NCBI GenBank assembly: GCA_045862955.1
Contig: BTVI01000030.1
Location: 1-41,568, forward strand
DNA from: Fimbriimonadales bacterium
Lineage (GTDB): Bacteria > Armatimonadota > Fimbriimonadia > Fimbriimonadales > JABRVX01
Direction: 5' to 3'
Length of the DNA stretch: 41,568 bases
The notes beneath the pieces were generated by a model that was given only the letters and a program-made list of their open reading frames with translations, was not told where the DNA came from and made no database searches. The translations under genes and the position numbers were made by a program. Of this stretch, positions 1 through 19,017 are shown piece after piece (within the stretch, counting starts at the first letter, position 1; each line of letters starts with the position of its first letter).

Positions 1-3000
1 AACGGACCCACCGTGTGAGTGCCCTGGTCGCACGGCGCATCGGTGTGTACCACCACGCCGTCGATCAGCACCTCGCAACGCTTCAGCGGCCCAGGCAGGT
101 TGTCACTGACCGTGTAGGTCACGCTGACAGGGCTCTTCACGCACTGACCCTCAGTCGGAGCGTTCACCCTCGCGGTCGGTGGCGTGTTGTCCACCTTGAA
201 GTTGACGACCAGACTCGTGCCCACGTTGTCGCACTCGTCTACCGCACGCACTTGCACCGTGTGAGGACCGTCACCCAGAGCGAACGGACCCACCGTGTGA
301 GTGCCCTGGTCGCACGGCGCATCGGTGTGTACCACCACGCCGTCGATTAGCACCTCGCAACGCTTCAGCGCACCGGGGAGGTTGTCGCTAACCGTATACG
401 TCACGCTGACAGGGCTGCGAACACACTGACCTTCCTGCGGGGCATCTACCGCCACCGTCGGAGGAGTCTCGTCCACCGTGAAGGTGACGAGCGCGCTCTG
501 ACCCACGTTGTCGCAGTCATCGGTAACACGCACCTGAACGGTGTGCAAGCCATCGCTCAGCGCGAACGGACCCGCGACGTAGTCACCCTGCGGACACGGC
601 GCGTCGGTCTTGACCACGACACCGTCGATCAGTAGCTCGCACTTCTTCAGCGGACCCGGCAGGTTGTCGGCAACACTGTAACGCACGGTCACCGACTTAC
701 CGGTGCACTGACCGTCCTGAGGCGCCGTGATCGTAGCAGTGGGAGGAGTCTCGTCCACCGTGAAGGTGACCAGCGCGCTCACACCGACGTTGTCGCAATC
801 ATCGGTTACTCGCACCTGCACGGTGTGGACACCGTCAGCCAGCGCAAACGGTCCCGCCACGTAATCACCCTGCGGACACGGTGCGTCGGTCCTGACGACG
901 ATACCGTCGATCAGCAGCTCGCACTTCTTCAGCGGACCGGGCAGGTTGTCGGCAACGGTGTAACGCACGGTGACCGACTTACCGGTACACTGCCCGTCCT
1001 GCGGAGATGTAATCGTCGCAGTAGGCGGCGTGTTGTCCACCTTGAAGTTGACAAGGGTGCTGGTACCGACGTTGTTGCAATCATCGGTCGCGCGCACCTG
1101 AACAGTGTGAGGCCCGTCGGCTAGCACGAACGGTCCGACCGTGTGAGTGCCCTGGTCGCACGGCGCGTCGGTGTGAACCACGGCGCCATCTATCAGCACC
1201 TCGCAACGCTTCAGAGGACCGGGTAAGTTGTCAGACACCGTGTAGGTGACACGAACTGGGCTCTTCACGCACTGCCCTTCGGTCGGTGCATCCACCCTCA
1301 CCGTCGGAGGAGTCTCGTCCACCACGAACGTCACCGTTGCACTCAGGCCCACGTTGTTACAGTCATCGGTTGCGCGAACCTGGACCGTGTGCGGGCCATC
1401 GCTCAGCGTGAACGGGCCGACCGTGTGAGTGCCTTGCGTGCACGGTGCGTCGGTGTGCACCACCACACCGTCGATCAGCAGCTCGCACTTCTTCAGCGGA
1501 CCCGGCAGGTTGTCGGAGACCGTGAAGGTGACGCTAACGGACCGCCCCGTGCACTGACCCTCGGTCGGTGCATCCACGCGGGCCGTAGGAGGCGTATCGT
1601 CCACCGTGAAGGTCACGAGCGCGCTCAGGCCGACGTTGTCGCAATCGTCCGTCACACGCACTTGCACCGTGTGCAAACCGTCGGCGAGGTCGAAAGGTCC
1701 TGCCGTGTAGTTGCCTTGCGGGCAGGGTGCATCGGTCTTGACTACCACGCCATCGATCAACAGCTCGCACTTCTTCAGCGGACCTGGTAGGTTATCCGCC
1801 ACGCTGTACGATATCGAGACGCTGCGCCCGGTGCACTGACCGTCCTGCGGCGAGGTGACCGTCGCAGTGGGCGGCGTATTGTCCACCTTGAAGTTGACCA
1901 GAGTGCTAGTACCGACGTTCTCGCAGTCGTCCTTCACTCGCACCTGAACCGTGTGAGGACCGTCGGCCAATGCCATCGTGTGCTCGTACGAACCCTGCGG
2001 GCACGGCACTTGCGTCTTGACTACCACACCGTCCACGAGAAGCTCGCAGATGGGCAGTGGTCCAGGCAGATTGTCGGCAACCGTGTACCGAATGGTAACA
2101 GGACTCCGAACGCACTGACCTTCGGCAGGAGCATCCACGCTGGCCGTCGGCGGTGTGTTATCCACCTTGAAGCCGACGACGCTACTGAGGCCGACATTGT
2201 TACAGTCGTCCGTCACGCGCACCTGCACCGTGTGGTTACCGTCCGGCAGCGCGAACGGCCCTACGGTTTGCGTGCCCTGCGGACACGGCGCTTGTGAGTG
2301 TACGACCACACCGTCAATCAGCACCTCACACAGCTTGAGCGGGCCTGGCAGGTTGTCGGACACGGTAAAGCGCACGCTCACTTGACCCGTAACGCACTGC
2401 CCCTCTGCCGGCGCCTCGATGGTTGCAGTCGGCGGCGTGTCATCCACCTTGAAGGTGACGGTAGCACTGGTGCCGATGTGCTGGCAATCGTCCTCGGCCC
2501 GTACGAACACTGTGTGAGTCCCCTCGCTCAATGTGACCGGACCGAAGGTATGCGTTCCTTGCGGGCAGGGGGCTTTCGTCTGCACCTTGACGCCGTCGAG
2601 CCACAGCTCACAGTATCGCAGCGGATCCGGGATGTTATCAGCGACGGTATAGGTGATCGTTACCTGATTGCGCACGCACTGCCCGTCGGACGGCGCAGTC
2701 ACCGTGAGGGTGGGCGGAGTATCGTCCACCTTGAAGGTGATGGGAGCACTAGCACCCGGGTTACCGCACGCATCTACGACCCGGATCTCTACGGTGTGGT
2801 AGCCTTCGGAAAGCGTGAAGGGCCCCACGGTGTGGCTGCCCTGCGGACACGGTTCGATGGTCTGCCGAACTACGCCATCAATCAAGACCTCACACTTCGA
2901 CAGGTTGCCGGGAAGCGTGTCAGCTACCGTGAACTCGATGGTGACAGGGTTCCGAAGGCACTGGCCATCTTGGGGCGCCACGATGACAGCAGTCGGGGGG

Positions 3001-3006
3001 GTGCGG
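1..3006 (-). repeat. Coding tandem repeat, 282-bp (94-aa) unit, 10 full copies plus one partial
   Basis: The Val-Asp unit boundary (mostly gtccac on + strand) recurs near 189, 471, 753, 1035, 1317, 1599, 1881, 2160, 2442, 2724, 3006. Spacing is 282 except one 279. Confidence 0.9.
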
Positions 3007-3770
3007 TCTACGAAGAAGTCGGCGACTGCGGTCGAGATGTTACCTGGCGACCGACATAGCTCCTCGGGATCGAAACCGGCCTGATCCTGGACGACGAAAC
3101 TCAGCCTATGTGCGCCGTCCGACAGCGTCGTCAGGTCGAGCACGCCGATCGGCGTCGTGAACGGACAATCGTTCACGGGGCCCTGCGTGGGGGTTATCTG
3201 GACATCGTCCAGCTCCCAGTACCAGCGGCGAATGCAGTGCAGGTCGTTCGCAGTACCCTGGTATTCGAGAGAGTCGTCTGACGCGTTGTAGCACGCCTTC
3301 GGGTTCAGGATGAAGGCCTCAGCATCCGGGGGTGTGTTGTCCACCACGAAAGGCACTTCGTCGAACTCCAGGACCACCTCACCGTTCTGGGTCTGCTGGA
3401 GCAACTCCGCTCGGAACGTATAGTTCCCATCGGCGAGCGGGGCGAGCGGGCTTTTCGTGTTAATACAGGGCGGCCAGATTCCGAACTCGCATCCATCGGG
3501 ACAGGTCGGTCCAGCGATGACACGCACGACGTTGTTGCCTGCGTCCAGGATGACGAGTTGAACTCGTGAAAGGAGTTCCCCGGTTGCCGCGTAATGGATC
3601 TCGAGCTGCACGAACTGCGAGACCACCATGTTCGGCTCTGGGATGATGATCTGGACGAACCGAGGCCCCGTGCCCCAATTGGAGCCTGGCTTGTCCACTG
3701 GATCGATAGTGACTTGAGCCGCAGCCAGAATCGGCAGCAGCAAGCACAGGATGCTAAGAAACCGACGCAT
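1..3770 (-). CDS. Large secreted Cys-rich Ig-like repeat protein (3' end truncated by window edge); paralog of 6973-10365 and 13492-15603
   Basis: Manual translation from ATG at 3770: MRRFLSILCLLLPILAAA-QVTIDP (signal peptide), two unique domains, then ~94-aa repeats such as VDNTPPTATVTSPQDGQC...DNLPGPLKKCELLIDGVVVKTDAPCPQG...ADGLHTVQVRVTDDCDNVG. The 282-bp periodicity keeps the frame to the window edge. Absent from the ORF track because it has no stop in the window. Confidence 0.9.
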   Translation of the reverse strand, partial: MRRFLSILCLLLPILAAAQVTIDPVDKPGSNWGTGPRFVQIIIPEPNMVVSQFVQLEIHYAATGELLSRVQLVILDAGNNVVRVIAGPTCPDGCEFGIWPPCINTKSPLAPLADGNYTFRAELLQQTQNGEVVLEFDEVPFVVDNTPPDAEAFILNPKACYNASDDSLEYQGTANDLHCIRRWYWELDDVQITPTQGPVNDCPFTTPIGVLDLTTLSDGAHRLSFVVQDQAGFDPEELCRSPGNISTAVADFFVDRTPPTAVIVAPQDGQCLRNPVTIEFTVADTLPGNLSKCEVLIDGVVRQTIEPCPQGSHTVGPFTLSEGYHTVEIRVVDACGNPGASAPITFKVDDTPPTLTVTAPSDGQCVRNQVTITYTVADNIPDPLRYCELWLDGVKVQTKAPCPQGTHTFGPVTLSEGTHTVFVRAEDDCQHIGTSATVTFKVDDTPPTATIEAPAEGQCVTGQVSVRFTVSDNLPGPLKLCEVLIDGVVVHSQAPCPQGTQTVGPFALPDGNHTVQVRVTDDCNNVGLSSVVGFKVDNTPPTASVDAPAEGQCVRSPVTIRYTVADNLPGPLPICELLVDGVVVKTQVPCPQGSYEHTMALADGPHTVQVRVKDDCENVGTSTLVNFKVDNTPPTATVTSPQDGQCTGRSVSISYSVADNLPGPLKKCELLIDGVVVKTDAPCPQGNYTAGPFDLADGLHTVQVRVTDDCDNVGLSALVTFTVDDTPPTARVDAPTEGQCTGRSVSVTFTVSDNLPGPLKKCELLIDGVVVHTDAPCTQGTHTVGPFTLSDGPHTVQVRATDDCNNVGLSATVTFVVDETPPTVRVDAPTEGQCVKSPVRVTYTVSDNLPGPLKRCEVLIDGAVVHTDAPCDQGTHTVGPFVLADGPHTVQVRATDDCNNVGTSTLVNFKVDNTPPTATITSPQDGQCTGKSVTVRYTVADNLPGPLKKCELLIDGIVVRTDAPCPQGDYVAGPFALADGVHTVQVRVTDDCDNVGVSALVTFTVDETPPTATITAPQDGQCTGKSVTVRYSVADNLPGPLKKCELLIDGVVVKTDAPCPQGDYVAGPFALSDGLHTVQVRVTDDCDNVGQSALVTFTVDETPPTVAVDAPQEGQCVRSPVSVTYTVSDNLPGALKRCEVLIDGVVVHTDAPCDQGTHTVGPFALGDGPHTVQVRAVDECDNVGTSLVVNFKVDNTPPTARVNAPTEGQCVKSPVSVTYTVSDNLPGPLKRCEVLIDGVVVHTDAPCDQGTHTVGP

Positions 3771-3975
3771 GGGCGCCCATCTCACTTTCTCTAATCACTG
3801 ACGGGGACCAGAAAGGGGGCGCGTCCGGCACCTGCGCAGATTGGGCTTAGCCCTTGGCCCGCCGTGAGGCGAGGCGCACCTCACCCGCTGCGGCGAAACC
3901 CAACCACCTTAGCTCCCCGGCACTCTCGCAAAACGAATTGTACCAGCCGGATTCTTTACCGTTGACCTGGTGAAC

Positions 3976-4004
3976 ATTCTAACCGCATTGGTTCCAGCTG
4001 TCAA
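3976..4004 (-). promoter_or_regulatory. Sigma70-type promoter for the Ig-repeat gene at 3770
   Basis: Minus strand TTGACA (4004-3999), 17-bp spacer, TAGAAT (3981-3976). A second extended -10, TGgTACAAT, lies at 3945-3937. Confidence 0.75.
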
Positions 4005-4059
4005 GAGTTGCAACCTAATCACACGTACAGGTGGCCTGCAATTCGGTATTTGGGCTAGG

Positions 4060-4096
4060 CAAGAACTAAGGCCCCGGCGCCACTGCGCCGGGGCCT
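4060..4096 (-). terminator. Intrinsic terminator-like hairpin after the 4126-5949 gene
   Basis: Perfect 12-bp stem aggccccggcgc/gcgccggggcct with 4-nt loop, followed on the minus strand by TAGTTCTTG. Confidence 0.7.
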
Positions 4097-4125
4097 CGCC
4101 CTACGGAGTCTGCGGTGCTTCCCGC

Positions 4126-5949
4126 CTAGTCGCCGACGCGACCGAAGGAGGAGAGCGTCAGGCTGAGGTCTCTTACGTCGGTAATGCCGTCGCCGTTCAA
4201 GTCGGTCCGTGGATCCGTGCGCTCGGCGAACAGGACCATGAGCGCGACATCGTGCATGTCCACCTTGTTATCACCGTTGACGTCACCCGGGAACAACTCC
4301 ACGTCCAAACCGGTGCAGCCGTGCGCGGGCAGCGCGCTCAGCGTGACCTTGCGGCAGAGGTAGCCGGGCACTCGGAACTCTACTTCGAACGGGCCGGCAC
4401 CAGCTGCGAAGCGCTCACCGCGCAGTAGATAGAAGCCACTGCGGGCCTGCGGAAGCTCGTCCTCTACCACTGGCGAGCCGTTGAGCTCGCGCACACGTAC
4501 CTGCAGCTTCACGAACGACTGGTCCCCGTCGCCGTTGGGCCCTCGCCAGCCGGCTAGGTCCACGTTCTGAGCGACGCCCTGGAACTCGAACGCACCCTTG
4601 TCGGGATAGGCCTGCGACTTGCCCGTCGAGTTCACGGGACGATTGGCTCCGTTGAAATCGTCGTAGACGTACAGGTAGCCGTAGTCGAGCACCGTGCTGT
4701 CGGGCGACAGCTCGTACGACAAGGGGTCGTCCAGGAAATTGCGGTTGAGGAAATTGGGATCGGTATGGGTGGTCGTCGGTCCGGCACGTTGCAGGTCCTG
4801 CTCGGTGTCGAATGCTCCCACATCGTTCATCCAGAAGTTGGCGTAGGCCCAGTTGTAATCCGACGTCCCATCCCTACCGACGGCTGCCCGAGGGCCGCGG
4901 TTGTATGCGATCAGCTCGTTGCGGAAGGTCCCGTTGCCGTGGTCTGCCACGTACACCGCCGAGTTGCCAACCGTCGCAACGTTGTCGGCTATGGTGTTAT
5001 GGGTCAGGCGGGGCCAAGCACCGGAGCCGCGGACGAGGATGGTTGCAGACCCGGCTCGGTTTCGGCTGAACACGTTGTTGGCAATGTCCGTCGAAGTGTA
5101 GTCGTACAGGTCGGCTGCCGAGCCATAGGTTGCCTCGTTCTCGACGAAGAAGTTGCGGGTGAAGGGCACCTGCTGCACCCTACGCAGCCAGATGGCACCA
5201 CCGCCTTCGAGCGCCGTCGAGGTAGCGACATTACGCTCGAACCGAGAGCACATCACATAGCCGAGGCCCGCGTCCATAGCCAGGCCACCACCCCTCGCGG
5301 CAACGCACTCTCGAACCGTCAGCTCGGATGCCTTGAACCCCGCACCGACGGCGTGAATGCCTCCACCCGACCCGGTAGTGGAGCATCGCTGAACCAGGAC
5401 CCGGGTCAGCTCGATGGAGCCGTTGGCAACGGAGATTCCGCCGCCGTGGTTGCCTGTGTACGACGTGCAATCCTCTACGACCACATCGGTGAGTCGTACG
5501 TTGTCCGACTGGTACGAGTAGAGCCCTCCGCCGAACCCGACCGCGTTGCCGTTGCGTAGGGTGAGCCGGTCGAGCACCGTGTCGTGCGCGCGATTGAGCC
5601 GAAGGACGCGGCCCTGGCGTCCGGCATCCAGAACCGTCGCGCCCCCATGCCGCGCCTCGAGTGTGGCTTCATCGCCCGCGAAACCGCCATAGAGCTCGAT
5701 GCCCGAAACGTTGATCGTAAGCATCTCGAGATAGACGCCCTGGCGGAGCCACAGCTGTGCGGGGCCGCCGGCAGCCTGAAGTGCACCAGCCACGGTGCGC
5801 TTGGCGGCTGCCCAGCTGAGGCCGGAGTTGGCGTCGTTGCCATCGGGCGAGACATAGATGACCTGCGCGGCATTGGCAATCGCGGACACCGCCAACACCG
5901 CTGCCATCACTACCGGCTTCGAGAACGATCCGAATGGCCGATGATTCAC
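4126..5949 (-). CDS. Secreted right-handed parallel beta-helix protein (DUF1565-like start) with choice-of-anchor-Q-like segment and C-terminal dockerin-like EF-hand pair
   Basis: RBS AAGGAG then GTG at 5949. Signal peptide, then IYVSPDGNDANSGLSWAAAKRTV, GGG-rich beta-helix turns, LSPDSTVLDYG..DFNGANRP..PDKGAFE, and GDVNGDNKVD / DLNGDGITD. The upstream ORF extension to 6327 looks non-coding. Confidence 0.85.
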   Translation of the reverse strand: MNHRPFGSFSKPVVMAAVLAVSAIANAAQVIYVSPDGNDANSGLSWAAAKRTVAGALQAAGGPAQLWLRQGVYLEMLTINVSGIELYGGFAGDEATLEARHGGATVLDAGRQGRVLRLNRAHDTVLDRLTLRNGNAVGFGGGLYSYQSDNVRLTDVVVEDCTSYTGNHGGGISVANGSIELTRVLVQRCSTTGSGGGIHAVGAGFKASELTVRECVAARGGGLAMDAGLGYVMCSRFERNVATSTALEGGGAIWLRRVQQVPFTRNFFVENEATYGSAADLYDYTSTDIANNVFSRNRAGSATILVRGSGAWPRLTHNTIADNVATVGNSAVYVADHGNGTFRNELIAYNRGPRAAVGRDGTSDYNWAYANFWMNDVGAFDTEQDLQRAGPTTTHTDPNFLNRNFLDDPLSYELSPDSTVLDYGYLYVYDDFNGANRPVNSTGKSQAYPDKGAFEFQGVAQNVDLAGWRGPNGDGDQSFVKLQVRVRELNGSPVVEDELPQARSGFYLLRGERFAAGAGPFEVEFRVPGYLCRKVTLSALPAHGCTGLDVELFPGDVNGDNKVDMHDVALMVLFAERTDPRTDLNGDGITDVRDLSLTLSSFGRVGD

Positions 5950-6388
5950 TTGTGCCGCTCCTTCTGTGTAGAAATCGTGGGGCACGGAATGCCCTCTCGG
6001 GTGGCTCATTCCCCACGGGAGCGGCGCAGGCTCTCGTATCTTCCTTGGCTTGGGACGCCGCGGGCAAAATCCGGCAAGGCTGTCAGCGCGTGAACGGCAC
6101 GGCAACGCCGATCGGGTCTTTTCGGGCCTGGTGCTGACACTGGGAGCGACACAGGTACGAGTACGGTTTTTCGGCAACCGCCATACCAGAACTGCTCGCT
6201 CGCTTCTTCCTCCCTTGCCATCTCCAAGGCAGCGGCTCGGCGTACGGGTCTCCTCTGGCACTGTGCAGACCCGCTCGCGCCTTCCCGCACTGGTATCCCA
6301 AAACCTACCGGTGCCTGGTGGTAGCACATGACTGGCGAGGCTCTTCCCCGCTCGCCCTTCACAGGGGATAGAGGACGGGGCACTGGCG

Positions 6389-6560: not shown

Positions 6561-6561
6561 A

Positions 6562-6886: not shown

Positions 6887-6923
6887 AAGAACAAAGGTAG
6901 CGGCCCCGCCGGAGCGGGGCCGC
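6887..6923 (-). terminator. Intrinsic terminator-like hairpin after the 6973-10365 gene
   Basis: 10-bp stem gcggccccgc/gcggggccgc with 4-nt loop; minus-strand tail TACCTTTGTTCTT. Confidence 0.7.
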
Positions 6924-6972
6924 ACCTCTCGGCCTCCTGTGTTGCACGAGTAGTGCCGAAGTTAGTAAGAGC

Positions 6973-9900
6973 CTATTCCTGTCGGAAGAACAGGTCCGCC
7001 GCCTGCTCGATCAGCAAGCAACCAACCGGCTCTTCGTCACTCTCGATCAGGTACTGGTGCCAGAAGCGCACGTCGCGCTTGCCGTCCTGGCCGATGAACG
7101 TGTAGAAGTCCACGCTCGCCAGGCCGACGATTGTCTCGAACGCTGTTAGCGCTTCGGTCGGGTCTGGAATGTTGAGCGCATCACGGAGCGAGTCGGCGAC
7201 GATGGGCGGGATCTTCGGCTTCTGAGTCCGCCCCAGCGCCACGGTCGAGAAGTACTCGATGTTGCGCAGGATGATCTCGGTGCCCATCGCACGGCCTTTA
7301 TTGAACGGGCTCTCGAGCACCCATCGCCACACGACCGTTTGCGGCTCACCGATGCGGCCGGTATTCGGGTCGCGTACCACGTACACCACGCCCAGCTCGT
7401 AAGTGGTGCAGGGCGGCGAGAACAGCAGGCTGCGATTGCCCATGTACCAGCCGTCGTCCGACTTCGGCAGACGGAGCGCCAGTCGCAGCACCGACTCATC
7501 CAAGTCAGCGTTGGTTGCGGGGCCGCGATTCCGCCTCTCGGGGTGCATCCAGTCCGGGTCGAACGTGTTTACACCGGACCCAGGGCCGATGACGAATGCC
7601 GCGCACTTCCAGAACGGCGTGCACTTCCAGTAGGTGGCCTGCTGGACGATTAAGTTGTCGTCAATCGTCACGTTGTTGTGCAGCAGGATGTCGCGGATGG
7701 TGAACCCGTCCAGGTTGATGTAGCCGGGTCGGAACGTGTCCTTCAGGGTGTTGTCCCACGGATCCACGCTCTTGAAGTTGCTCCGGATCACGTTCTTCAG
7801 CTCATCGCCCCAACAACCTTCACACGGCCCATGACACGGTCCGACGATGAAGGTCGTCTCACACACTCCAACGTTGCCACACTCATCCCTGGTCTGCACC
7901 CGCAAGCGGTGCACCCCGTTAGCGAGGAAGGGCAGTTCGATCTCGGGTGCGCACTCCCCATCGCCGAAGTCAGCAGGCAAGCCGGGCCAATCGAGTGGCT
8001 CGCCATCCAGGGTGATTTCGAGGACTGTTATCCGCGAGCACTCATCGTGGACGCAGAACTGCGCCATGACGGGGTTCTGCAGGCAAGAGCCACTCGGCTC
8101 AGTCCACTCACAGCGAGGAGGCCGCTTGTCCACATTGAACGTCCAAGTCGTCTCGCCAGGGTTGTTGCACCCGTCCCACACCTTCACGACCACCGTGTGC
8201 GGGCCGTCGGAAAGGTCGGAGGGACCAGGACACTCGATGGTGGTCCACACACCGTCCCCAGCAAACACGACCGAGCCTTCGCAGCGCTTCACACCGTCCA
8301 ACCAGAACTCGTACCGACCGGTACCAGCGCAGTCGTCGGAGGTCTTCACCGACAGCAAACCAACCGGACTGCACACACAGTCGCCAGTGGGCACGGGGTC
8401 GCTGAACTGCGGCGGCGTCTTGTCCACGTCGAAGGTCCAACTCGTCTCGCCAGGGTTGTTGCACCCGTCCCACACCTTCACGACCACCGTGTGCGGGCCG
8501 TCGGAAAGGTCGAAGGGACCAGGACACTCGATGGTGGTCCACACACCGTCCCCAGCAAACACGACCGAGCCCTCGCAGCGCTTCACACCGTCCAACCAGA
8601 ACTCGTACCGACCGGTACCAGCGCAGTCGTCGGAGGTCTTCACCGACAGCAGACCAACCGGACTGCACACACAGTCGCCAGTGGGCACGGGGTCGCTGAA
8701 CTGCGGCGGCGTCTTGTCCACGTCGAAGGTCCAGCTGTAAGAACGTGCGTTACCACACTTGTCGGTCACTACTACTTCGACGAGGTGCGTACCGCCTGCT
8801 AGATCCAGCGGGCCTGGACAAGTGATCGATTTCCAGACGTCTGGAACCAATTGCTCCGTGCCTCTGCACCTTTCGACCCCATCCAGCGTCAGAACCCAGG
8901 CTGCCTCAGGGCAATTATCCTTGAGGTCGAAGCGAAGGCTATCGATCGGGCTGCAAATGCAATCACCTTGAGGATAGCCGTTGCGAACGTCCGGGGGGGT
9001 CACGTCTGGGTCATAGACGCATCCGCTCAAGCCAGTCAGTCCGTCCGCGTCCGTGACCTCGATGCACACCGTAGTGGGGCCGGGGAAGTTGAAGGCGTAT
9101 GGAGGCTGGGGGTTGAACCGCGTTCGCAGGGCGGGATCATCGGTGCAGATGCGCGTGCCTTTGGTCAGCAAAAAGTGATCGAAAGTCCCTTGGGCAACGA
9201 TCGTCTCTCCAGGGTCCCGCTTCTTGTTACCGTCGCTGTCGATCCATACGACGAAGCTCAGGAATCTCTTTGCAGGATCGGGATCGTCGTCATAGGCATC
9301 CCGGTCACTAAAGCAGAAGTTGACGTCGAGCGGATTACAGCTACAGTAGGGAGACGGCTTGCACTCCACTTCGGGAGGCTCCTGAACATCGTGGGGCACT
9401 GGCGGGCCCTGTGTGCAGTTCGGGCCACTGTAGCACGTATACGTGGATTGCTCGACGAACCCCGCGCCATCGCATGCCAGTATATGAACATAGTACCTGC
9501 CAGGACTGGCGGGCCAATGTTCCGGGGGCCAGTGGAGCCCAGCGTCGTTGAACTCCTGATTGTACTCACTAGGGAACGGGCAGGGGAACACGACCTCGCG
9601 CCGCCACAGCTCAGGTCCGTTCGGATCTCCAATCGTCACCCACAGAGTGATCTTCGAGACCCCGGAACCCGGGAACACCGGGTCGCTTAAGTCGTCCTTG
9701 GCCTTGATCCTGAACCGAGGTGGAGGATCCGACGGCGTGGACAGGGGCCTGTTCACGTCAAACTCGAGATTGGGGGCCTTCCTGTCCAGCACGAACTTGC
9801 GGTAAGTAACCAGCTTGATATCGGCCTCTGCCGGGGGACACAGCGTTGGCGGCGGTGGGTCAGGGTTCAAATTCTGATACAGGATGACCGCCGCCGTCCA

Positions 9901-10365
9901 GTGTCCATCCAGCAGGCCGGGCCTGAGGGCAAAGTCCACACACTTAATCGCCGTTCCAGAGCCTCCGAACTCGAAGTAGTCACCGGACAGCACGAGCTTC
10001 TGATTGTCTGAAATGTTGCAGACCTTGCTCCTGTCATAGAGATCGACCGGATAGCTCAAGCCCGCCCGGTCATCGATGAGCACATAGTAAAGGCCGTGGT
10101 TCGACTCACATCCGTACGCTATGTCTAACTCGAACTTGCCGCTCAGCCTTGGCGGCACGAAGTCCTGGCACAACAGGTCGGGGCCACCGGGACGAACGAA
10201 GGAGATCGGGCCCAGAGAGTTCGGATCCAGTGGGCCGCGAGCTGCTCCTGGATTGGCGATCGCGGAGCCGCCCTCCTGACGTTGCGGCGGCACTTGAGCC
10301 TCCCCAGCGCCTGCTGCACCCAGAAAGAAGAGAAGTCCCGCCGCACATCGCGTAAGCACTCCCAT
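6973..10365 (-). CDS. Secreted Cys-rich Ig-like repeat protein with conserved C-terminal domain of unknown function
   Basis: ORF of 1132 aa from 10371; RBS GGAGG spacing favours ATG 10365. Signal peptide ending AGEA-Q. Ig-like units (DKTPP...LSDGPHTVVVKVWDGCNN). C-terminal ~277 aa clearly homologous to the C-terminus of 13492-15603. Confidence 0.9.
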   Translation of the reverse strand: MGVLTRCAAGLLFFLGAAGAGEAQVPPQRQEGGSAIANPGAARGPLDPNSLGPISFVRPGGPDLLCQDFVPPRLSGKFELDIAYGCESNHGLYYVLIDDRAGLSYPVDLYDRSKVCNISDNQKLVLSGDYFEFGGSGTAIKCVDFALRPGLLDGHWTAAVILYQNLNPDPPPPTLCPPAEADIKLVTYRKFVLDRKAPNLEFDVNRPLSTPSDPPPRFRIKAKDDLSDPVFPGSGVSKITLWVTIGDPNGPELWRREVVFPCPFPSEYNQEFNDAGLHWPPEHWPASPGRYYVHILACDGAGFVEQSTYTCYSGPNCTQGPPVPHDVQEPPEVECKPSPYCSCNPLDVNFCFSDRDAYDDDPDPAKRFLSFVVWIDSDGNKKRDPGETIVAQGTFDHFLLTKGTRICTDDPALRTRFNPQPPYAFNFPGPTTVCIEVTDADGLTGLSGCVYDPDVTPPDVRNGYPQGDCICSPIDSLRFDLKDNCPEAAWVLTLDGVERCRGTEQLVPDVWKSITCPGPLDLAGGTHLVEVVVTDKCGNARSYSWTFDVDKTPPQFSDPVPTGDCVCSPVGLLSVKTSDDCAGTGRYEFWLDGVKRCEGSVVFAGDGVWTTIECPGPFDLSDGPHTVVVKVWDGCNNPGETSWTFDVDKTPPQFSDPVPTGDCVCSPVGLLSVKTSDDCAGTGRYEFWLDGVKRCEGSVVFAGDGVWTTIECPGPSDLSDGPHTVVVKVWDGCNNPGETTWTFNVDKRPPRCEWTEPSGSCLQNPVMAQFCVHDECSRITVLEITLDGEPLDWPGLPADFGDGECAPEIELPFLANGVHRLRVQTRDECGNVGVCETTFIVGPCHGPCEGCWGDELKNVIRSNFKSVDPWDNTLKDTFRPGYINLDGFTIRDILLHNNVTIDDNLIVQQATYWKCTPFWKCAAFVIGPGSGVNTFDPDWMHPERRNRGPATNADLDESVLRLALRLPKSDDGWYMGNRSLLFSPPCTTYELGVVYVVRDPNTGRIGEPQTVVWRWVLESPFNKGRAMGTEIILRNIEYFSTVALGRTQKPKIPPIVADSLRDALNIPDPTEALTAFETIVGLASVDFYTFIGQDGKRDVRFWHQYLIESDEEPVGCLLIEQAADLFFRQE
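8141..8728 (-). repeat. Near-identical 294-bp (98-aa) tandem duplication of one Ig-like unit
   Basis: 8141-8434 versus 8435-8728 differ at only a few positions; the protein units differ mainly by GPFDL/GPSDL and ETSW/ETTW. Confidence 0.9.
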
Positions 10366-10472
10366 TATCATACACCTCCCTTTCCGACACCCGACTCCCC
10401 AAGAAGACCATTCTTACGAGAACTGGAGCTAGGCGTTTTGCTGGCCCGAAAAATCACTGGCTCCGTGCGTGC

Positions 10473-10501
10473 AGTATATCACGAGTCCTAGGAATTGGCA
10501 A
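10473..10501 (-). promoter_or_regulatory. Sigma70-type promoter for the Ig-repeat gene at 10365
   Basis: Minus strand TTGCCA (10501-10496), 17-bp spacer ending in TGa, TATACT (10478-10473). Confidence 0.75.
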
Positions 10502-10763
10502 GCATCCTCCCGCCATTTTCATAATGCAGCCCACCCCAACATGATCGTACGCAGATATCAGGGCAGGCTACGTGACATATCCACAGCGGACGACCAGATC
10601 GCGGAGCAGCATCCTCCCGAGCTTGACGTCAGACCATTCCGGGGCGAAGGCTCAGTGCTACACGCGTGTTCTCACGAGTCTTCTTTCGCGACCCAGAACC
10701 GCTCGGATCGGGGCAACACGACCTCAGTGACGGGTCTTTGCATGTGGGGTCGGGCGACGCTGG

Positions 10764-12713
10764 TCAGTCGCCGCGCCGATCGAAGTTTAGCAGGACTACA
10801 GTCAGATCCGTGACGGTGATAACTCCATCGCCGTCTATATCGTAAATGGTCGGCTTTTCCCACGGCGTGAACATCAGCAGATTGAGGTCAGCCACCCCGA
10901 CTTGGTTATCACCAGTTAGGTCTCCACCCACGAGCACCGGGACATCATGCTCGGTCGAACCCACACCAGGGGAATTGTACTTCGGGAATGGGAACTGCAG
11001 GGACCTGCCCGACGATGGGTCAGACGGATCTATGAGACCTTCGAGCGCCTTCCAGAGGTAGTTCCGCACCTTCACTTTGACTGAGTACCTGGCTCCTTTC
11101 TCCCAACCCCATCCGCCAGGCAACACGTAAAAGCCGTCTGCAGACTGCGGCACCTCGGCATCGAGAAGAAGACGATTCGTCTCGTCCCAAACCCGGACCT
11201 GCAGTAGTACAGCCGACTGGTCGGGGCGTCCGTCGGTCACGCATCTCCACGCCTCCAGCTGCACGCGCTGCTGCACCCCTTGATACTCCAACGCGCCTCC
11301 GTCCGGCATGGGGTCTACATCATACCGACGTCCCGCCACAGGTCGAGGCTTGAGGGCATCGGGGTCGCTCATCAGATCGGCCGCCTCTGCATAGTCGTCA
11401 TTTAGTCCAAGAGGTGCACCGTCAATGATCCTGCTTCCCTCCGTAAGATGAAATGAGAGCGGATGGTGAGTGTAGTGTCGGTTCAGGAACTTAGGGTCTC
11501 GTTCCCCCACTCCACCGCAGAGCGTCTGGACATCGTACGGATCGTCGAACAAGGGGCCGGAGTTGGCCCACACATACACGGTGACAAGCTGAAAGCCCGC
11601 GCTAGCCTCTCTGCCGAACGGAGCACGCGGCCCGCAGTTATAGGCGACGATGGAACTTCTCAGTAGTACCGTCGCCCTGTCGGCCGAGCCGACCGCGGAG
11701 TTCCCAAGACTTGCGATGTTGTCGGCGATCGTGCAGTGCCACGCTGTGACATAGGTGTACTGCCCCGTGACCAAGACTGCGCAGCCGTCTCCACGGTTTC
11801 CTGAGATGATGCAGTTGAATACCGTAGGCTTGCTTCCGGCCGCAGCCACTAAGGCGGACCCGACTGGAGCCTCATTTCCTGTGAACAGACTCCTGCTGAC
11901 TGCGAGACCACTACACGTGTTGAGGAATGCGCCGCCGCCCGCAGCCGTTGTATCGCCAGATGCACGGTTCGAGATCATTTGCACACTCTCGAGTAACCCG
12001 ACCACACCGGAAAGATAGAGTCCACCACCCTTCGTAGCAGCACACTGTGTAACCAGGACGTTCTTTGCTACCAAAGTGCCGCTGGACATGTACAGCCCGC
12101 CGCCCACCGAGTTTGAAGCGCAACGGCGGATCGTCGAGTCCTGCAGGTCTACTGTGGACGAGATGGCGCACATCCCTCCACCGGAGACGTAGCCACGAGG
12201 CTCGCAGTCCTCAATGGTAACTTGTCGCATCACCAGTGATGTGCAGTTCGATACATTCACTCCAGCCCCGAGACCACTGCCCCCACCGTTCCGAATGACA
12301 AGACGATCTAGACGAGTGCTCTCACAATCTGAAACCCGAAGGCACCTCGCCAGCTTCTGTCCGTCAATCACCGTTTCCCTGCCGGTGCGGTTGTCATTCC
12401 CCTCGGGGTCGAAGTGGGAAGTGTCTTCGGTGCCAGAGAAGCCACCGTAGAGCTCCAGATCGTGCTTGGCGTTGATCGTCAGCCACTCTTGATAGACCCC
12501 TTCCCTGATGAAGATGCGGGTAGGGGACGTGGGATTGGACGGAGCGGCGGAGATGGCGGCGCCGATGGTGCGCTTGGCCAAGGCCCAACTGGAGCCGTTG
12601 TTGGCGTCGTTGCCGTCCGTGGAGACGTGGATGACCACCCCGGCAACGGCTGCGAGGTGCGAAAGCGTGAGGGCGAGAATGCCAACCAGGAAGCGGATGC
12701 AGAATCGGTTCAC
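10764..12713 (-). CDS. Secreted right-handed beta-helix protein with C-terminal dockerin-like domain (paralog of 4126-5949 and 15938-17773)
   Basis: GTG at 12713 after GGGGTG. Signal peptide, IHVSTDGNDANNGSSWALAKRTI, GGG beta-helix turns, LTEGSRIIDG..PDGGALE, GDLTGDNQVG / DIDGDGVIT; ends FDRRGD. Confidence 0.85.
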   Translation of the reverse strand: MNRFCIRFLVGILALTLSHLAAVAGVVIHVSTDGNDANNGSSWALAKRTIGAAISAAPSNPTSPTRIFIREGVYQEWLTINAKHDLELYGGFSGTEDTSHFDPEGNDNRTGRETVIDGQKLARCLRVSDCESTRLDRLVIRNGGGSGLGAGVNVSNCTSLVMRQVTIEDCEPRGYVSGGGMCAISSTVDLQDSTIRRCASNSVGGGLYMSSGTLVAKNVLVTQCAATKGGGLYLSGVVGLLESVQMISNRASGDTTAAGGGAFLNTCSGLAVSRSLFTGNEAPVGSALVAAAGSKPTVFNCIISGNRGDGCAVLVTGQYTYVTAWHCTIADNIASLGNSAVGSADRATVLLRSSIVAYNCGPRAPFGREASAGFQLVTVYVWANSGPLFDDPYDVQTLCGGVGERDPKFLNRHYTHHPLSFHLTEGSRIIDGAPLGLNDDYAEAADLMSDPDALKPRPVAGRRYDVDPMPDGGALEYQGVQQRVQLEAWRCVTDGRPDQSAVLLQVRVWDETNRLLLDAEVPQSADGFYVLPGGWGWEKGARYSVKVKVRNYLWKALEGLIDPSDPSSGRSLQFPFPKYNSPGVGSTEHDVPVLVGGDLTGDNQVGVADLNLLMFTPWEKPTIYDIDGDGVITVTDLTVVLLNFDRRGD

Positions 12714-13318: not shown

Positions 13319-13348
13319 ATTATACCCGGAGTCTTGCCAGCATGTGAA
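13319..13348 (-). promoter_or_regulatory. Possible sigma70 promoter ~600 bp upstream of the 12713 gene
   Basis: TTCACA (13348-13343), 18-bp spacer, TATAAT (13324-13319). Confidence 0.45.
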
Positions 13349-13423
13349 GCGGCCATGCGGCAGCACCGTAAGTTTACCGGGTGACCAAGGAAATCGTGGT
13401 ACTTCCTGTTACAATTACGTCAT

Positions 13424-13467
13424 AACATAAACAGAACCGCCCGCCGGTCGATGGCCCGGCGGGCGGT
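13424..13467 (-). terminator. Intrinsic terminator after the 13492-15603 gene
   Basis: 12-bp stem accgcccgccgg/ccggcgggcggt; minus-strand tail TCTGTTTATGTT. Confidence 0.75.
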
Positions 13468-13491
13468 GTCCATTCGTGCAGTCCGACTAGA

Positions 13492-15603
13492 CTACGGGTG
13501 CCACAGCAGCGAGTTGGCCTGCTCGATGAGCAGACAGCCTATCGGCTCCTCGTCACTGTCGATGAGGTAATCGAAGAAGAACCGAACGTCGCGCTTGCCG
13601 TCCTGACCGATGAAGGTCCGGAAGTCAATTGCATACATTCCGATCACTTGCTCGAACGCGATCAGAGCGTCCAGGTCGTTCGGAATGTCCAGGGCGTCGT
13701 TGAGCGCCTTGGCAACGTGCGGCGGGATCTTCGGCTTTTGGGTGCGCCCCGCAGCCACGGTCGAGAAGTACTCGATGTTAGCGCGGATAACGTCCTTGTC
13801 GGGCATCTCGACGCACCAGCACAGCACCTTGGTGATAGGCGGGCCGGTTCGGCCGGTATTCGGGTCGCGGATGACGTAGGTCACCGACAGCTCGTAGCAG
13901 GTTCCCGGAGGCGAGAACAGCAACGAGCGGTTGCCGAGGTACTTGCCGTACGCGGTGTACACGACCGAATCGTCGATGTTCGCGCTCGTTGCGAAGGCCA
14001 GCGTATACCAGTTGGTGTTCAGGTCCGAACCCGGGCCGTACACGAAGGCACCGCACTTGTAGAGCGGCGTTACCTTGCGCACATCCACCGCCTGGATGAT
14101 CAGGTTGTCATCGAACGTCACACCGTGGCAGTTGAGAATGTCCCGGATCGTGAAGCCGTCGAGATTGATGACTTCCGGTCGGAACGTCCGCTTGACCCCG
14201 TTGTCGAACGGGTCGGTGGTAGTCAGATTGCCGCGCCAAATCAGGTTCGGCAGAATGACACAGTCGCAGTCACCGGGCGGATTCTCTTCCTGCTGCAGCC
14301 TGAACCGAGTCTGGGTTTGGTTGCCGCAGGCGTCGGTAGCCGTGATCAGGAAGTCGTGGCAAGCGAAGTCACCGGGCGTCCACTGCACCGAGCCGCTGGT
14401 ACCCGAGCCATTGTTCGGGTTGAGGCCAGTCGTACCACCGTCCACGGTGATGGTCCAGTTGCTCGCCTCACTAATGGTGAAGGAGATGGCGACCGTCGGA
14501 CCCGTGACTAGCTTGCACTGGCCCGGGTCGGTGATGACCGGAGTGACCACCGTGATCACCGGATCGGTGTTGTCGGTTGAGAAGGTCGACTGGCTAAAAC
14601 CGACGTTGCCGCACTCGTCACGAACCTCCACGCGCAGCGTATGGTTGCCATCCGCCAGCGTGGTGGTGTCGAAGGCGAGCGATGTCTGAGTGGGCAGCAG
14701 AGTGGCCTTCAACACGCCGTCCACGTACACCTTCGTGTCTACGAGCGCCGTAGTAGGCGGACTATTGTTGACGGTCCAGCTGAAGTTGACCGTACCCCGT
14801 AGACAAGTTCCCGGGCTCTGAACGTTGACGACCGGCGCGGTCGAGTCCACGGTGAACTCGAGCGTTCGCACGGTCACGTTCGGTCCGCTCTTGCACACGT
14901 CCGGGGGCAGGAAGCCCGCGGCATCTGCAACCTCGAACTGAATCGTGTAGATGCCGTCCGCGAGCAACGCCATGTTGATCGTCCGATTGACGTTGAGCGG
15001 GCTCGTGGTTGCCCCGTGCGATTCGTTGGCGATGCCGTTTCCGGTCAGACTCCAGGAACTGAAGTTGCTGGCATCTGTCGCGTTCGCGGTGAACTGAACG
15101 TTGGTGTCGTTCTTGTTGTAGCAACCCTTGTCCGGGTTCAGAGCCACGGAGGCTACAGGCGCCGTCTTGTCCAGCACGATCTGAATCACGTCAGTGAAGA
15201 TCGTGGCGTTCGTCTGCATGTCGTAAATGCGGGCGGTGCAAGTATAGGTCCCGTCAGGGAACGGACCACCCACTGCGAAGTCCGCACACGGTGGCCACAG
15301 CCCCGGGATACCACCGTCCGGGAACGTAGGCCCGCTGATGAACTTCGTCTCACCTGTACCGTTGCGAACACACCGGAGGTCCAGCGCGAGACCAGGTGAT
15401 ATGGCAGTGTGGCTAATGGAGAACTGCACCGAGCTGGTGACTTTCTGTCCATCTGCTGGCGAGTCGATACTCAGCTCGTTGAGGTCTCCCAGCTTACCGA
15501 CCTGTCCTACATTGCCAGGACCCCCAGGGCGAATGACCTGGGAATGCACCGCAATCGAGGACAGGAGCAGCAAGCTGCAACACAGGAGTCGTATTGGCTG
15601 CAT
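13492..15603 (-). CDS. Secreted Cys-containing Ig-like repeat protein (about four Ig-like domains) with conserved C-terminal domain of unknown function
   Basis: 703-aa ORF with purine-rich RBS and signal peptide MQPIRLLCCSLLLLSSIAVHS-Q. Ig motifs such as LADGNHTLRVEVRDECGN. Domains 1-2 align with the 3770 protein (GPTxPDG..GxWPPC; KxCYN; DxAGF.P...C.S..N). Confidence 0.9.
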   Translation of the reverse strand: MQPIRLLCCSLLLLSSIAVHSQVIRPGGPGNVGQVGKLGDLNELSIDSPADGQKVTSSVQFSISHTAISPGLALDLRCVRNGTGETKFISGPTFPDGGIPGLWPPCADFAVGGPFPDGTYTCTARIYDMQTNATIFTDVIQIVLDKTAPVASVALNPDKGCYNKNDTNVQFTANATDASNFSSWSLTGNGIANESHGATTSPLNVNRTINMALLADGIYTIQFEVADAAGFLPPDVCKSGPNVTVRTLEFTVDSTAPVVNVQSPGTCLRGTVNFSWTVNNSPPTTALVDTKVYVDGVLKATLLPTQTSLAFDTTTLADGNHTLRVEVRDECGNVGFSQSTFSTDNTDPVITVVTPVITDPGQCKLVTGPTVAISFTISEASNWTITVDGGTTGLNPNNGSGTSGSVQWTPGDFACHDFLITATDACGNQTQTRFRLQQEENPPGDCDCVILPNLIWRGNLTTTDPFDNGVKRTFRPEVINLDGFTIRDILNCHGVTFDDNLIIQAVDVRKVTPLYKCGAFVYGPGSDLNTNWYTLAFATSANIDDSVVYTAYGKYLGNRSLLFSPPGTCYELSVTYVIRDPNTGRTGPPITKVLCWCVEMPDKDVIRANIEYFSTVAAGRTQKPKIPPHVAKALNDALDIPNDLDALIAFEQVIGMYAIDFRTFIGQDGKRDVRFFFDYLIDSDEEPIGCLLIEQANSLLWHP

Positions 15604-15787
15604 TACCCTCTTCCTTCCGTTCTAGCAATAAGAGATAGCGAAACCGCCGCCGCGGAAGTCTGAACCCACGGCGCGCCCCTCTCTCCCCCCTCGAGCCGTA
15701 AGCCCGCGAGGTTATCGAAAAGCACAAAACCGTTTCACACGGCGCGCGACCGGCGCAAGTGATTCGCACCGAGCCCCGCTGCCCTAT

Positions 15788-15816
15788 ATTCTACATGCAG
15801 TTTTGCCGTACGTCAA
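15788..15816 (-). promoter_or_regulatory. Sigma70-type promoter for the Ig-repeat gene at 15603
   Basis: Minus strand TTGACG (15816-15811), 17-bp spacer, TAGAAT (15793-15788). Confidence 0.75.
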
Positions 15817-15937
15817 TGTTCCCGTGTAGAATCAGCACAGTCCGGTCTTCTTACCTGAGTGCAAAGACTTGCCAGCAAATACTCGTTACTCGCCAGTAAC
15901 TTTACGAGGAAGACAAACGAAGGCGCAGCAGGATACT

Positions 15938-17773
15938 TTAGTCACCCAGCGCACCGAAGTTCGCCAGTACGGTGCTCATGTCCGGCACGTCTACCGATAA
16001 GTCGCCGTTGATGTCTCCGGGCATTGGTCCAGTCGCTCCGAAGGTGCTCATAATCACGTTGAGGTCCTGAAGGTCCACTCTGTTGTCGCCGTTCGCATCA
16101 CCGGGGATCAGCACGACGTTCAGGCCGGTACAGCCGTGCGCGGGAAGAGCAGGGATTTCGAGCTTCCGAATCAGATACCCCTTGGCAGAGATACGAATCG
16201 TCCACGGTCCACTCTGAGGCGCGAAGACATCGCCGGGAAGCGTATAGAAGCCGCTTTCGCTCTGCGGCACCCAGTCGTCCAGAACCAGCCGTCCGTTTCC
16301 ATCTTGCGCGCGGATCCGCAGTAGAGCCGCCGATTGGTCGCCGTCGCCCTGTGGCCCTCGCCAGCTCGGCATCGCGACGTACTGCGATACCGCCTGATAC
16401 TCGTAGCATCCCTTGTCCGGATAAGGCGTGCCATACCCGCTGGAGTCCACGGGACGAGGCGCCCCACAATAATCGAACTGCACCTCGACGTACCCATAGT
16501 CACGAACCAGGCTGTCCGGCCGAAGGTTGTAGCTCCACGGGATGTCCAGGTAGAGCCTGTTCACGTAGCGAGGGTCCACCTGAGTCGTTGTCGGGCCTGC
16601 AGCGTTGAGGTCCTGCGGGTTCGAGAACGGGGCGACCGAGTTCATGTAGAAGTTCCCGTACGACCAGTAGTAGGAGGCCGATGCGTCCCTTCCCACCGCC
16701 GCGTCGGGACCCGTGTTGAACGTGATGTTCTCGTTTCGGATCGTGCCCGAAGCCTGGTCGTAGAAGTACATCACGCTGTTCCCGACCGTGGAGACGTTGT
16801 CGGAGTACGTGTTGTTGATGAGCCGGGGCCAGGTTCCAGAGTTGCGCACCAAAACGGCAGCGGTGCCGGCGGTGTTTCGGGTGATCAGGTTGGCATAGAC
16901 CTTCGTGTTCGTTCGGTTCAGAAGGTCGAGCGCGGCACCGGCATTCGCCTGGTTCTCCGTGAACCAGTTCCGCTCGATCTGGACCTGCTGCACCGTGCGT
17001 AGCCAGGCGCCGCCGCCGCCCTCTAGCCCTCCACAAGTCGCGATGTTTCTGCGAAACACGCACGAGCGGACGTATCCCACTCCCCCCTCGAGCGCGAGGC
17101 CTCCACCCTTCGAGGCAACGTTATCCTCGAAGACGACTCCGGTTAGGAAGACGTCGGCACCGACCGCCCGCATGCCTCCGCCTATGTCGGCGGTGGTGCA
17201 CCTTCGAATGATGGTGTCTGTGATCGTGATGGACCCGTTCGATGCGTAGATCCCGCCGCCGGAGTTGTTGGTGCTGGAGGTGCAGTCTTCCAGTACACAG
17301 TTCGTGAGCGTCAGGTTGTTCGCGCTAGCAGCGTAAAGAGCGCCACCGAACCCGGTTGCCCTCCCGTTGCGTAGCGTAAGCCGGTCCAACAGCACGTCGG
17401 CAACGTAGTTCACGCGCACCGGACGCCCGAGATTGGCGCCATCGATCACCGTCGATTCGCCATGACGCTCTTCGAGAAGGGATTCGTCCCCGTAGAAGCC
17501 GCCATAGATGCGAAGCCCTGCGGTCTGTATCACGACGTTCTCGTAATACACACCCTGCCGAACCCAGATCTCGGAACCCGACGGCGCAGCAGCGACCGCC
17601 TGGCCAATCGTCGTGAATGCGGTGGCCCAGGTTCCGCCCCCTTGGTCGCTTCCGGTCGGCGACACATAGATGACTCCGAAGGAAGCGCTGGTGGACACGA
17701 CAAGCACGATGCATTGAAGCATCGCGCGCGAGGCCCTCGCCCGGAAACCGTAACACCCGCGAGCTTGTAACAA
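15938..17773 (-). CDS. Secreted right-handed beta-helix protein with choice-of-anchor-Q-like segment and C-terminal dockerin-like domain
   Basis: ORF open from 17836; start uncertain (TTG 17773 after GGGGTG, or ATG 17722). IYVSPTGSD..., extensive identity to the 4126-5949 protein (LEGGG.AWLR.VQQV, WRGPxGDGDQS, LPAHGCTGL), GDANGDNRVD / GDINGDLSVD; ends FGALGD. Confidence 0.85.
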   Translation of the reverse strand: MLQARGCYGFRARASRAMLQCIVLVVSTSASFGVIYVSPTGSDQGGGTWATAFTTIGQAVAAAPSGSEIWVRQGVYYENVVIQTAGLRIYGGFYGDESLLEERHGESTVIDGANLGRPVRVNYVADVLLDRLTLRNGRATGFGGALYAASANNLTLTNCVLEDCTSSTNNSGGGIYASNGSITITDTIIRRCTTADIGGGMRAVGADVFLTGVVFEDNVASKGGGLALEGGVGYVRSCVFRRNIATCGGLEGGGGAWLRTVQQVQIERNWFTENQANAGAALDLLNRTNTKVYANLITRNTAGTAAVLVRNSGTWPRLINNTYSDNVSTVGNSVMYFYDQASGTIRNENITFNTGPDAAVGRDASASYYWSYGNFYMNSVAPFSNPQDLNAAGPTTTQVDPRYVNRLYLDIPWSYNLRPDSLVRDYGYVEVQFDYCGAPRPVDSSGYGTPYPDKGCYEYQAVSQYVAMPSWRGPQGDGDQSAALLRIRAQDGNGRLVLDDWVPQSESGFYTLPGDVFAPQSGPWTIRISAKGYLIRKLEIPALPAHGCTGLNVVLIPGDANGDNRVDLQDLNVIMSTFGATGPMPGDINGDLSVDVPDMSTVLANFGALGD

Positions 17774-19011: not shown

Positions 19012-19017
19012 GATATG

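Follow-up and report, generated by a model that had tools for sequence, protein, structure and literature searches.

Type II X-module-dockerin (XDoc) modules and their anchoring scaffoldins (CipA, PDB 2b59 and 5g5d; A. cellulolyticus ScaA/ScaD), immunoglobulin (Ig)-repeat adhesins (SiiE- and LapA-like; Pfam Big_7/Big_13), the portable C-terminal tails of secreted proteins (PEP-CTERM, the GC-type dockerin NF041540, the C-terminal domain (CTD) of the type IX secretion system (T9SS), SLH) and the beta-helix glycan enzymes (AlgE4/AlgE6, RbmB, PL6, PL9, GH136), together with NosD, are the described systems closest to the gene array analysed here. The array lies in the window, i.e. the whole stretch of 41,568 nucleotides under study, which is an entire contig (C30) of the host genome G000, a Fimbriimonadales bacterium (Fimbriimonadia, Armatimonadota). 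It encodes three beta-helix proteins (A1 to A3) and three Ig-stalk proteins (B1 to B3). At the C-terminus of the stalk proteins is a domain without a catalogued family or earlier description, termed BCTD (C-terminal domain of B). Gene order across genomes supports A and B as a co-inherited cassette of two genes that was duplicated as one unit in two genera.

With the XDoc systems the array shares the last ~110 residues of A, which are homologous by profile and fold, and the layout of B, which like an anchoring scaffoldin combines a head, a stalk and a C-terminal module. In contrast to those systems, the tag is carried here by 75 unrelated proteins and not by a scaffoldin, B ends in BCTD instead of SLH, and no Pfam cohesin was found; the hosts differ as well, the Armatimonadota member F. 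sacchari being described as diderm in a section of PMC11535203. BCTD resembles the C-terminal tails in being terminal and portable, and it swaps with PEP-CTERM and X-dockerin; unlike them, it is a folded domain of ~260 aa without a Pfam or NCBIfam family, is also encoded alone, occurs in one family and has no identified dedicated sorting enzyme. The four-helix bundle (FHB) of the Neobacillus novalis GH92 (PDB 7nsn) is likewise C-terminal on a secreted protein. B carries tandem Ig repeats in variable number, as Ig-repeat adhesins do, and its profile matches 2yn3 (E 6e-5) and the large adhesion protein 6xi3 (E 0.056), but B has a signal peptide of the Sec type, repeats with 4-6 Cys each and a terminal BCTD, and Pfam/NCBIfam scans found no type I secretion family. 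A has the fold of the beta-helix glycan enzymes and NosD but only 10-19% identity to them; many families tie, and no cut-off beyond generic Beta_helix is passed. The literature on Armatimonadota S-layers, dockerins, PEP-CTERM and Fimbriimonad surface proteins yielded no description of BCTD or of the A-B pair, most subscription papers and supplements lying outside the search.

A sequence-only reading of this DNA had reported six co-oriented secreted-protein genes in strict A-B-A-B-A-B alternation, and all six open reading frames (ORFs) were confirmed on the minus strand at their assigned positions. The features of the array are as follows.

15938..17773, minus strand: A1, signal peptide, right-handed beta-helix (~residues 17-380), linker, X-module plus dockerin tag; likely start ATG 17722 (594 aa)
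15941..16297, minus strand: C-terminal X-dockerin tag of A1, a module common to 75 proteins of G000
15788..15816, minus strand: sigma-70-like promoter site of B1, 10 of 12 consensus positions, kept in G001 and both G002 A-B spacers
13492..15603, minus strand: B1 (703 aa) with signal peptide, a head of two Ig domains that contains the Cys-loop, another two Ig domains and BCTD
14821..15480, minus strand: B1 head, residues ~42-261, Ig-like; Cys-loop motif only in A-adjacent B proteins among those checked
13495..14268, minus strand: BCTD of B1 (~258 aa), an FN3-like beta-sandwich carrying insertions, together with a helical bundle
13436..13467, minus strand: intrinsic-terminator-like hairpin 3' of B1
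13319..13348, minus strand: sigma-70-like promoter site upstream of A2, 11 of 12
10764..12713, minus strand: A2, 649 aa, the most divergent A paralog
9046..12383, minus strand: divergent block of A2 residues 111-end, spacer and B2 residues 1-440, 37-41% identity to G001
10473..10501, minus strand: sigma-70-like promoter site of B2, 10 of 12, extended -10
6973..10365, minus strand: B2 (1130 aa) with a divergent head and Cys-rich Ig repeats; its BCTD lies at 6976-7800
6900..6923, minus strand: intrinsic-terminator-like hairpin 3' of B2
4126..5949, minus strand: A3, 607 aa
3976..4004, minus strand: sigma-70-like promoter site of B3, 11 of 12
1..3770, minus strand: 5' part of B3 (1256 aa) with the head and ten complete 4-Cys Ig repeats; the remainder, with the terminal BCTD, lies on C33 (34548-36698)

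BCTD and the stalk proteins

None of 46 BCTD members matched Pfam better than E 0.016, two queries gave no match in NCBIfam, and a sequence search of the PDB returned nothing under E 1. The predicted structure is confident (pLDDT 94.9, pTM 0.89) and consists of a helical bundle and a beta-sandwich part, the latter with a weak alignment (Z about 4) to FN3 domains. For residues 157-258 the best structural match is the four-helix bundle of 7nsn (Z 6.4, rmsd 1.9, 72 residues), a match that spans under a third of BCTD and has a Z also reached by generic helical bundles. Foldseek found nothing at E ≤ 0.001 and gave low-TM rows only, mostly kinesins (TM about 0.2), Atlas matches stayed under 0.9 and were unnamed, and a VIA search of 48,161 chains gave none at Z ≥ 8 (best 6.4), with no solved S-layer domain matched at these thresholds; this lack of a structural match is not proof of a new fold.

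BCTD is confined to one family (three genomes and metagenome proteins). It matches 8, 7 and 10 places in G000, its congener G001 and G002, which represents a sister genus; two of the G000 places are one contig-split gene with a 34-nt overlap, which leaves 24 genes. There was no match in 38 other genomes of the order or in 400 drawn from the phylum, nor is there one in the 12 genomes of the sister family f4 or in genome G040, and an exhaustive profile search of 1.84 billion representatives found 22 BCTD proteins. The domain is far more conserved than its passengers (48-62% identity between paralogs) and has the invariant polar residues Q59, K65, K71, C72, N84, R114, S119, T123, Y125 and T176. 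Self-processing at an Asp-Pro bond, an idea that comes from FrpC-type modules, was considered for the start of BCTD and dropped: the dipeptide is present in 30 of 46 rows and sits in a predicted beta-hairpin turn.

The domain is found at the extreme C-terminus of unrelated secreted passengers (Big_3_5, Big_7, DUF3344-like, SGL propeller), with the exception of P0034, a protein of 526 aa with two BCTD-like units in tandem and little else, the sole such architecture seen. In two passenger families of G000 the tail is interchanged on homologous passengers. Copies of a ~185-aa passenger carry as their tail BCTD (contig C2), X-dockerin (C26, C47 and C72) or, in five ORFs among the matches listed, PEP-CTERM; the C2 (BCTD) and C26 (X-dockerin) proteins are 61% identical over 299 aa. 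A second passenger has BCTD on C48 and X-dockerin on C33 (49% over 193 aa). The ~185-aa secreted domain itself (G000:C2:13691-14251 = L003:5692-6252, and paralogs) has 10, 9 and 29 matches in G000, G001 and G002, with tandem arrays in G002, and none in 38 other genomes; its two PEP-CTERM copies on C15 came near the top in a codon-bias run with two reference genes. The N-terminal domain of the C2 BCTD protein was tried as a cohesin-like receptor and set aside, with no Pfam or meaningful PDB match and a family-restricted distribution; since it is so restricted and is itself fused to dockerin and PEP-CTERM, it is a passenger. In G002, three tandem BCTD genes (G002:C2:108541-113706, L034) carry DUF3344-like passengers (two) and a beta-propeller, with no A gene.

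BCTD is also encoded alone. Two genes of G000 (C5:1-899 and C5:2306-3247; L004), which flank a small secreted-protein gene, encode a signal peptide, a short linker and BCTD (~310 aa), and five small proteins of the stand-alone type have a common longest contig of 54,622 bases. In codon bias, a proxy for expression computed with 27 references (24 ribosomal-protein-like ORFs from the cluster next to EF-Tu, plus EF-Tu, GroEL and DnaK), the stand-alone genes rank 12 and 18 of 1849, alongside GAPDH (rank 15) and a protein with SLH (rank 16). The C5 proteins are the best candidates for an abundant coat protein. The gene at rank 16, G000:C28:27132-29150, encodes 672 aa with an N-terminal SLH-like stretch and a coiled coil, a product that we take to resemble SlpA/OmpM outer-membrane tethers.

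We predict that BCTD is likely an envelope anchor and possibly a coat subunit. It is quite improbable that BCTD would instead be the working end of B, i.e. a lectin, receptor-binding or catalytic domain, with the stand-alone copies as abundant secreted effectors and the Ig repeats as spacers or oligomerisation aids. Its conservation, its invariant polar residues and its separately encoded copies would suit such a role, and in one part of PMC10167667 loss of the loosely similar GH92 helix bundle is reported to cut yeast-wall binding by about half. However, BCTD fills the PEP-CTERM/X-dockerin slot on the same passengers, and B has no other anchor: sequences and Pfam/NCBIfam scans of B1-B3 revealed no lipobox-like start, SLH, membrane tail or barrel.

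N-terminal to BCTD, B consists of a signal peptide, a two-domain Ig-like head and Ig repeats with 2-6 Cys. The related N-terminal domains claimed by the sequence-only reading hold for B1 and B3 (30% identity across the first ~460 aa), and B2 is related to them only weakly (E 0.002-0.07), with a Cys-loop motif common to the three; at the other end, B1 and B2 are 41% identical across their last ~530 aa. Both sequence and predicted-structure searches describe the head as Ig-like and not cohesin-like, and the Pfam scan of B1-B3 gave no Cohesin match. Of the lengths proposed earlier, 703 aa for B1 and ~1130 aa for B2 (1130) stand, and the >1256 aa of B3 can be refined. B3 is truncated by the contig start, and the end of C33 overlaps base 1 of the window by 141 nt and adds 716 codons ending in BCTD as in B1 and B2, so that a direct join of C30 and C33 gives ~1,900 aa; its repeat number is not secure because the contig break sits in near-identical repeats. 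The part in the window comprises ten full Ig repeats of 93-94 aa with 4 Cys each, and B2 contains a near-identical pair of 98-aa repeats, each with 6 Cys. The Cys pairs in these repeats would form disulfides.

Beta-helix proteins and their X-dockerin tag

A1, A2 and A3 are paralogs over their full length (33-51% identity), and Beta_helix is the sole Pfam family above cut-off in any of them. In the predicted structure of A1 (pLDDT 80, with residues 384-447 poor), residues ~15-390 form a right-handed beta-helix whose nearest relatives are the AlgE4/E6 epimerases, the RbmB lyase, NosD and tailspikes. With structural matches at 10-15% identity (Z 27-32), the fold points to no specific activity. 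A defined carbohydrate-active enzyme, as which the docked protein might be pictured, was not recognised, A meeting no enzyme-family cut-off in Pfam or NCBIfam and offering the beta-helix fold only. Between residues 96 and 399 the only charged or aromatic positions without variation across the 11 A proteins are D113, D308, R329, F366 and R389. E234 and D266, which are kept in 9 of the 11 aligned proteins, may be catalytic. Rhombotarget A was tried as a functional model and rejected, with a fold match alone and no lead from the literature. Among 228 genomes of the order, 3 have matches to an A-specific stretch (residues ~290-480); they all belong to the family of G000 and contain 8 such genes in total.

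The last ~110 residues of A are related to the type II X-module-dockerin of C. thermocellum CipA (E 6e-7 with a profile of 11 A proteins), and the fold of this tag agrees with XDoc at TM 0.50-0.55 over the target. The tag holds two D/N-rich loop-helix repeats, as in the pairs of Ca-binding loop and helix in dockerins, and Ca binding is predicted. Family models remained below their cut-offs: Pfam Dockerin_1 matched A3 only (18.6 vs 22.9 bits), the choice-of-anchor Q model NF041518 gave A3 16.7 bits against a 25-bit cut-off and no match to A1 or A2, and the GC-type dockerin NF041540 scored 14.2 bits for A1 and 20.4 bits for another G000 tag against a curated cut-off of 29 bits. Of the architecture first proposed for A, the beta-helix and, by the XDoc profile, the dockerin are retained, and choice-of-anchor Q stays below its cut-off.

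In G000 the tag is present on 75 ORFs and lies ≤25 aa from the C-terminus in 74 of them; all 12 genomes of family f4 carry it as well, in 29-110 copies each. Across the order its occurrence is patchy: families f1 and f4 and genome G040 have 29-110 copies, most f2 and f5 genomes 0-3. One secreted protein of 385 aa (G000:C31:3820-4977; codon-bias rank 2 of 1849) ends in half a dockerin tag with one loop-helix repeat.

The dockerin-cohesin logic by which A had been proposed to bind B is not supported, given a tag shared by 75 proteins, the absence of a Pfam cohesin from five genomes and the presence of tags without BCTD in all 12 f4 genomes. The cohesin search (PF00963) gave no match in any of the 5 genomes, its control was positive in 2 of 14, and a cohesin diverged beyond the model would escape it. 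As no cohesin was found, the locus is not a cellulosome. In the 12 f4 genomes, which carry the tag without BCTD, another receptor is needed anyway; on the same grounds, together with G040, BCTD was discarded as a general dockerin-tag receptor.

Pairing, duplication and transcription of A and B

A lies directly upstream of B in all eight cases. G000 and G001 contribute three each, those of G001 being spread over more than one contig, and G002 adds two, where the second B leaves the contig before its C-terminus. The pairing is therefore kept in three genomes although the paralogs have diverged, as proposed, and the Cys-loop head is confined to A-adjacent B proteins among those checked. The array is not an assembly artefact, because strict A-B alternation recurs in the two other genomes. 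In 228 genomes of the order A was never found without B. In contrast, the expectation that B homologs, as defined by BCTD, usually sit beside an A gene has to be given up, 16 of the 24 BCTD genes having no adjacent A.

In the two genera, each of at least three duplications took both genes along, and the locus never gained an A-A or B-B tandem. Two unrelated surface proteins that were neighbours by chance when the segment was amplified would fit the single origin of the pairing, the separate promoter sites and the many BCTD genes without A. Such hitch-hiking is nonetheless hard to credit, as the duplications copied both genes without leaving a tandem of either, A does not occur without B and the head is restricted to genes next to A.

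Trees of nine A proteins and nine heads share four sister pairs at 98-100 support. They include the two G002 copies, which are sisters in both trees and were therefore duplicated as a unit independently of the host genus. The predicted congruence of A and B trees thus holds for these pairs and breaks down at one metagenome pair, which the trees place differently and whose linkage rests only on an equal longest contig (18,391), adjacency not being seen. In addition, the BCTD tree joins B1 with B2, and the A tree sets A2 apart. A mirror-tree comparison of A and head gave rho 0.76 (7 of 5040 permutations, 7 units), the units being kin and one pair being linked by the equal longest contig alone. 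In a 6-unit set, A-BCTD did about as well as A-head (24 vs 30 of 720 permutations). Since A distances track BCTD about as well, the tree signal does not single out the head.

Between G000 and G001, A1, B1, A3 and B3 are 87-95% identical, with fourfold sites at 0.46-0.67, but identity is only 37% for A2 from residue 111 to its end and 41% for residues 1-440 of B2, where the fourfold sites stand at 0.30-0.33, near saturation. As judged from these sequences, the block with the A2 body and the B2 head was exchanged or differentially retained as one piece. The pattern of linkage fits an A-head functional unit, yet linkage alone would predict most of it.

Eight promoter-like sites were detected (3.8 ± 2.0 in shuffles), the best four of which precede B1, A2, B2 and B3. 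Terminator-like hairpins lie 3' of B1 and B2, and the three A-to-B spacers contain weak 5-pair stems only. Each B has its own promoter-like site, so its transcription would not depend on A. Contigs from RNA libraries (four runs, two studies), located with window 10000-17800 and read without a silent-stretch control, cover B1 almost end to end and the A genes in patches only; a ranking of genes is not possible from these contigs.

The main alternative, a cognate dock that moves the docking idea of the sequence-only reading to another site, is conceivable but doubtful. Each A would use a diverged X-dockerin or its beta-helix to bind the Cys-loop head of the neighbouring B, and B would be an anchoring scaffoldin with a non-cohesin receptor that lifts A to three heights. 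The constant placement of A before a head-bearing B, the joint change of A2 and the B2 head between the congeners and the four shared sister pairs would all be explained by it. In G002, a protein whose stalk resembles that of B3 (52% identical) lacks both the head and an A gene upstream, and the metagenome A and head-bearing B with the same longest contig, mentioned above, point the same way; further, the layout parallels the XDoc-binding anchoring scaffoldins as outlined in a portion of PMC4217186. However, neighbouring genes co-travel without binding, the correlation with A is about as good for BCTD as for the head, the head is not cohesin-like, and the tags of the f4 genomes require another receptor regardless. 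Separate B promoter sites and codon-bias ranks of 113 for B1 and 950 for A1 (of 1849) are not suggestive of 1:1 synthesis either.

The remaining features of the locus can be stated briefly. Independent sludge-metagenome contigs span window 8707-19000 and 1146-6498, and the DNA of the window was found in bioreactor, sludge and aquatic metagenomes (at least half of the words in 14 of the 23 runs listed; three possible sources). Locus scans returned three genome loci and six short metagenome loci of 1.3-10.5 kb, one of them a weak 17-residue match. Rfam gave no match in window 1-20000, and none of seven small spacer or upstream ORFs exceeded a Pfam cut-off. In the B2-A3 spacer (window 6372-6756), tandem repeats of 17 bp come before three copies of a hairpin-type repeat of ~35 nt, with very high summed metagenome depth. 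At window 17798-18835 (plus strand), short ORFs diverge from A1 and have sub-threshold Pfam matches only (MlaC E 0.004; YccF/DUF4381 E 0.07).

A proposed surface cassette and its implications

The reading that we favour, tentatively and at somewhat less than an even chance, is that B is an Ig-stalk protein on a predicted BCTD anchor and A a glycan-directed beta-helix protein on a common tag, the two forming a side-by-side cassette and not a dockerin-cohesin dock. Both proteins would be exported by Sec signals. BCTD would attach the protein that carries it to the envelope, in an orientation that puts the C-terminus close to the cell and the head farthest from it, and the stand-alone BCTD proteins, presumably abundant, may form a coat that holds the BCTD fusions. 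Stalks of about 4, 8 and at least 18 Ig domains, stiffened by disulfides, would place the heads at different heights. A, which is likely glycan-binding or glycan-cleaving and displayed via the genome-wide X-dockerin tag, would bind or act on a polysaccharide that is also engaged by the neighbouring head, and unequal crossing-over in the array may reshuffle A-head units against stalks and anchors.

Several observations weigh against this side-by-side arrangement. Catalysis by A is unproven because invariant residues are few and E234 and D266 are absent from both A2 rows of the alignment. Membrane segments and known wall-binding motifs are absent from BCTD, and in an excerpt of PMC10167667 the GH92 four-helix bundle is assigned no function. 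As all pairs descend from one ancestral locus, the A-B association amounts to one origin and a few duplications. Moreover, the Cys-loop motif in the second head domain is present in 8/8 A-adjacent B proteins, by construction as the pattern was written from these eight, and in 0/12 other BCTD proteins of G000 and G002, four unpaired G001 BCTD genes lying outside the check. Six of eight A tags score among the lowest against the tag profile (ranks 70-78 of 79), a placement biased by the other tags having trained the profile. The restriction of the Cys-loop head to neighbours of A genes and the low-scoring A tags would fit a private dock between A and its B as well as, or better than, the cassette without docking.

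A bolder and rather unlikely scheme makes BCTD a self-assembling coat: stand-alone subunits would tile the cell, fusions would set disulfide-braced stalks of several lengths into this lattice, each A would dock by a diverged X-dockerin onto its cognate Cys-loop head, which would thus be a non-cohesin dockerin receptor, and the array would be a recombining library of matched tip-and-stalk pairs.

The reach of these findings is limited to one family, with BCTD in three genomes and metagenome proteins and the window DNA from bioreactor and sludge communities. The literature searched contained no description of how Armatimonadota retain secreted proteins at the surface. With BCTD, the genome has a third kind of tail in addition to PEP-CTERM and X-dockerin; the domain is confidently modelled, occurs both alone and fused and is accessible as a 30-kDa protein. 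The A-head pairs supply the few specific candidates for an X-dockerin receptor in a genome without a recognisable cohesin.

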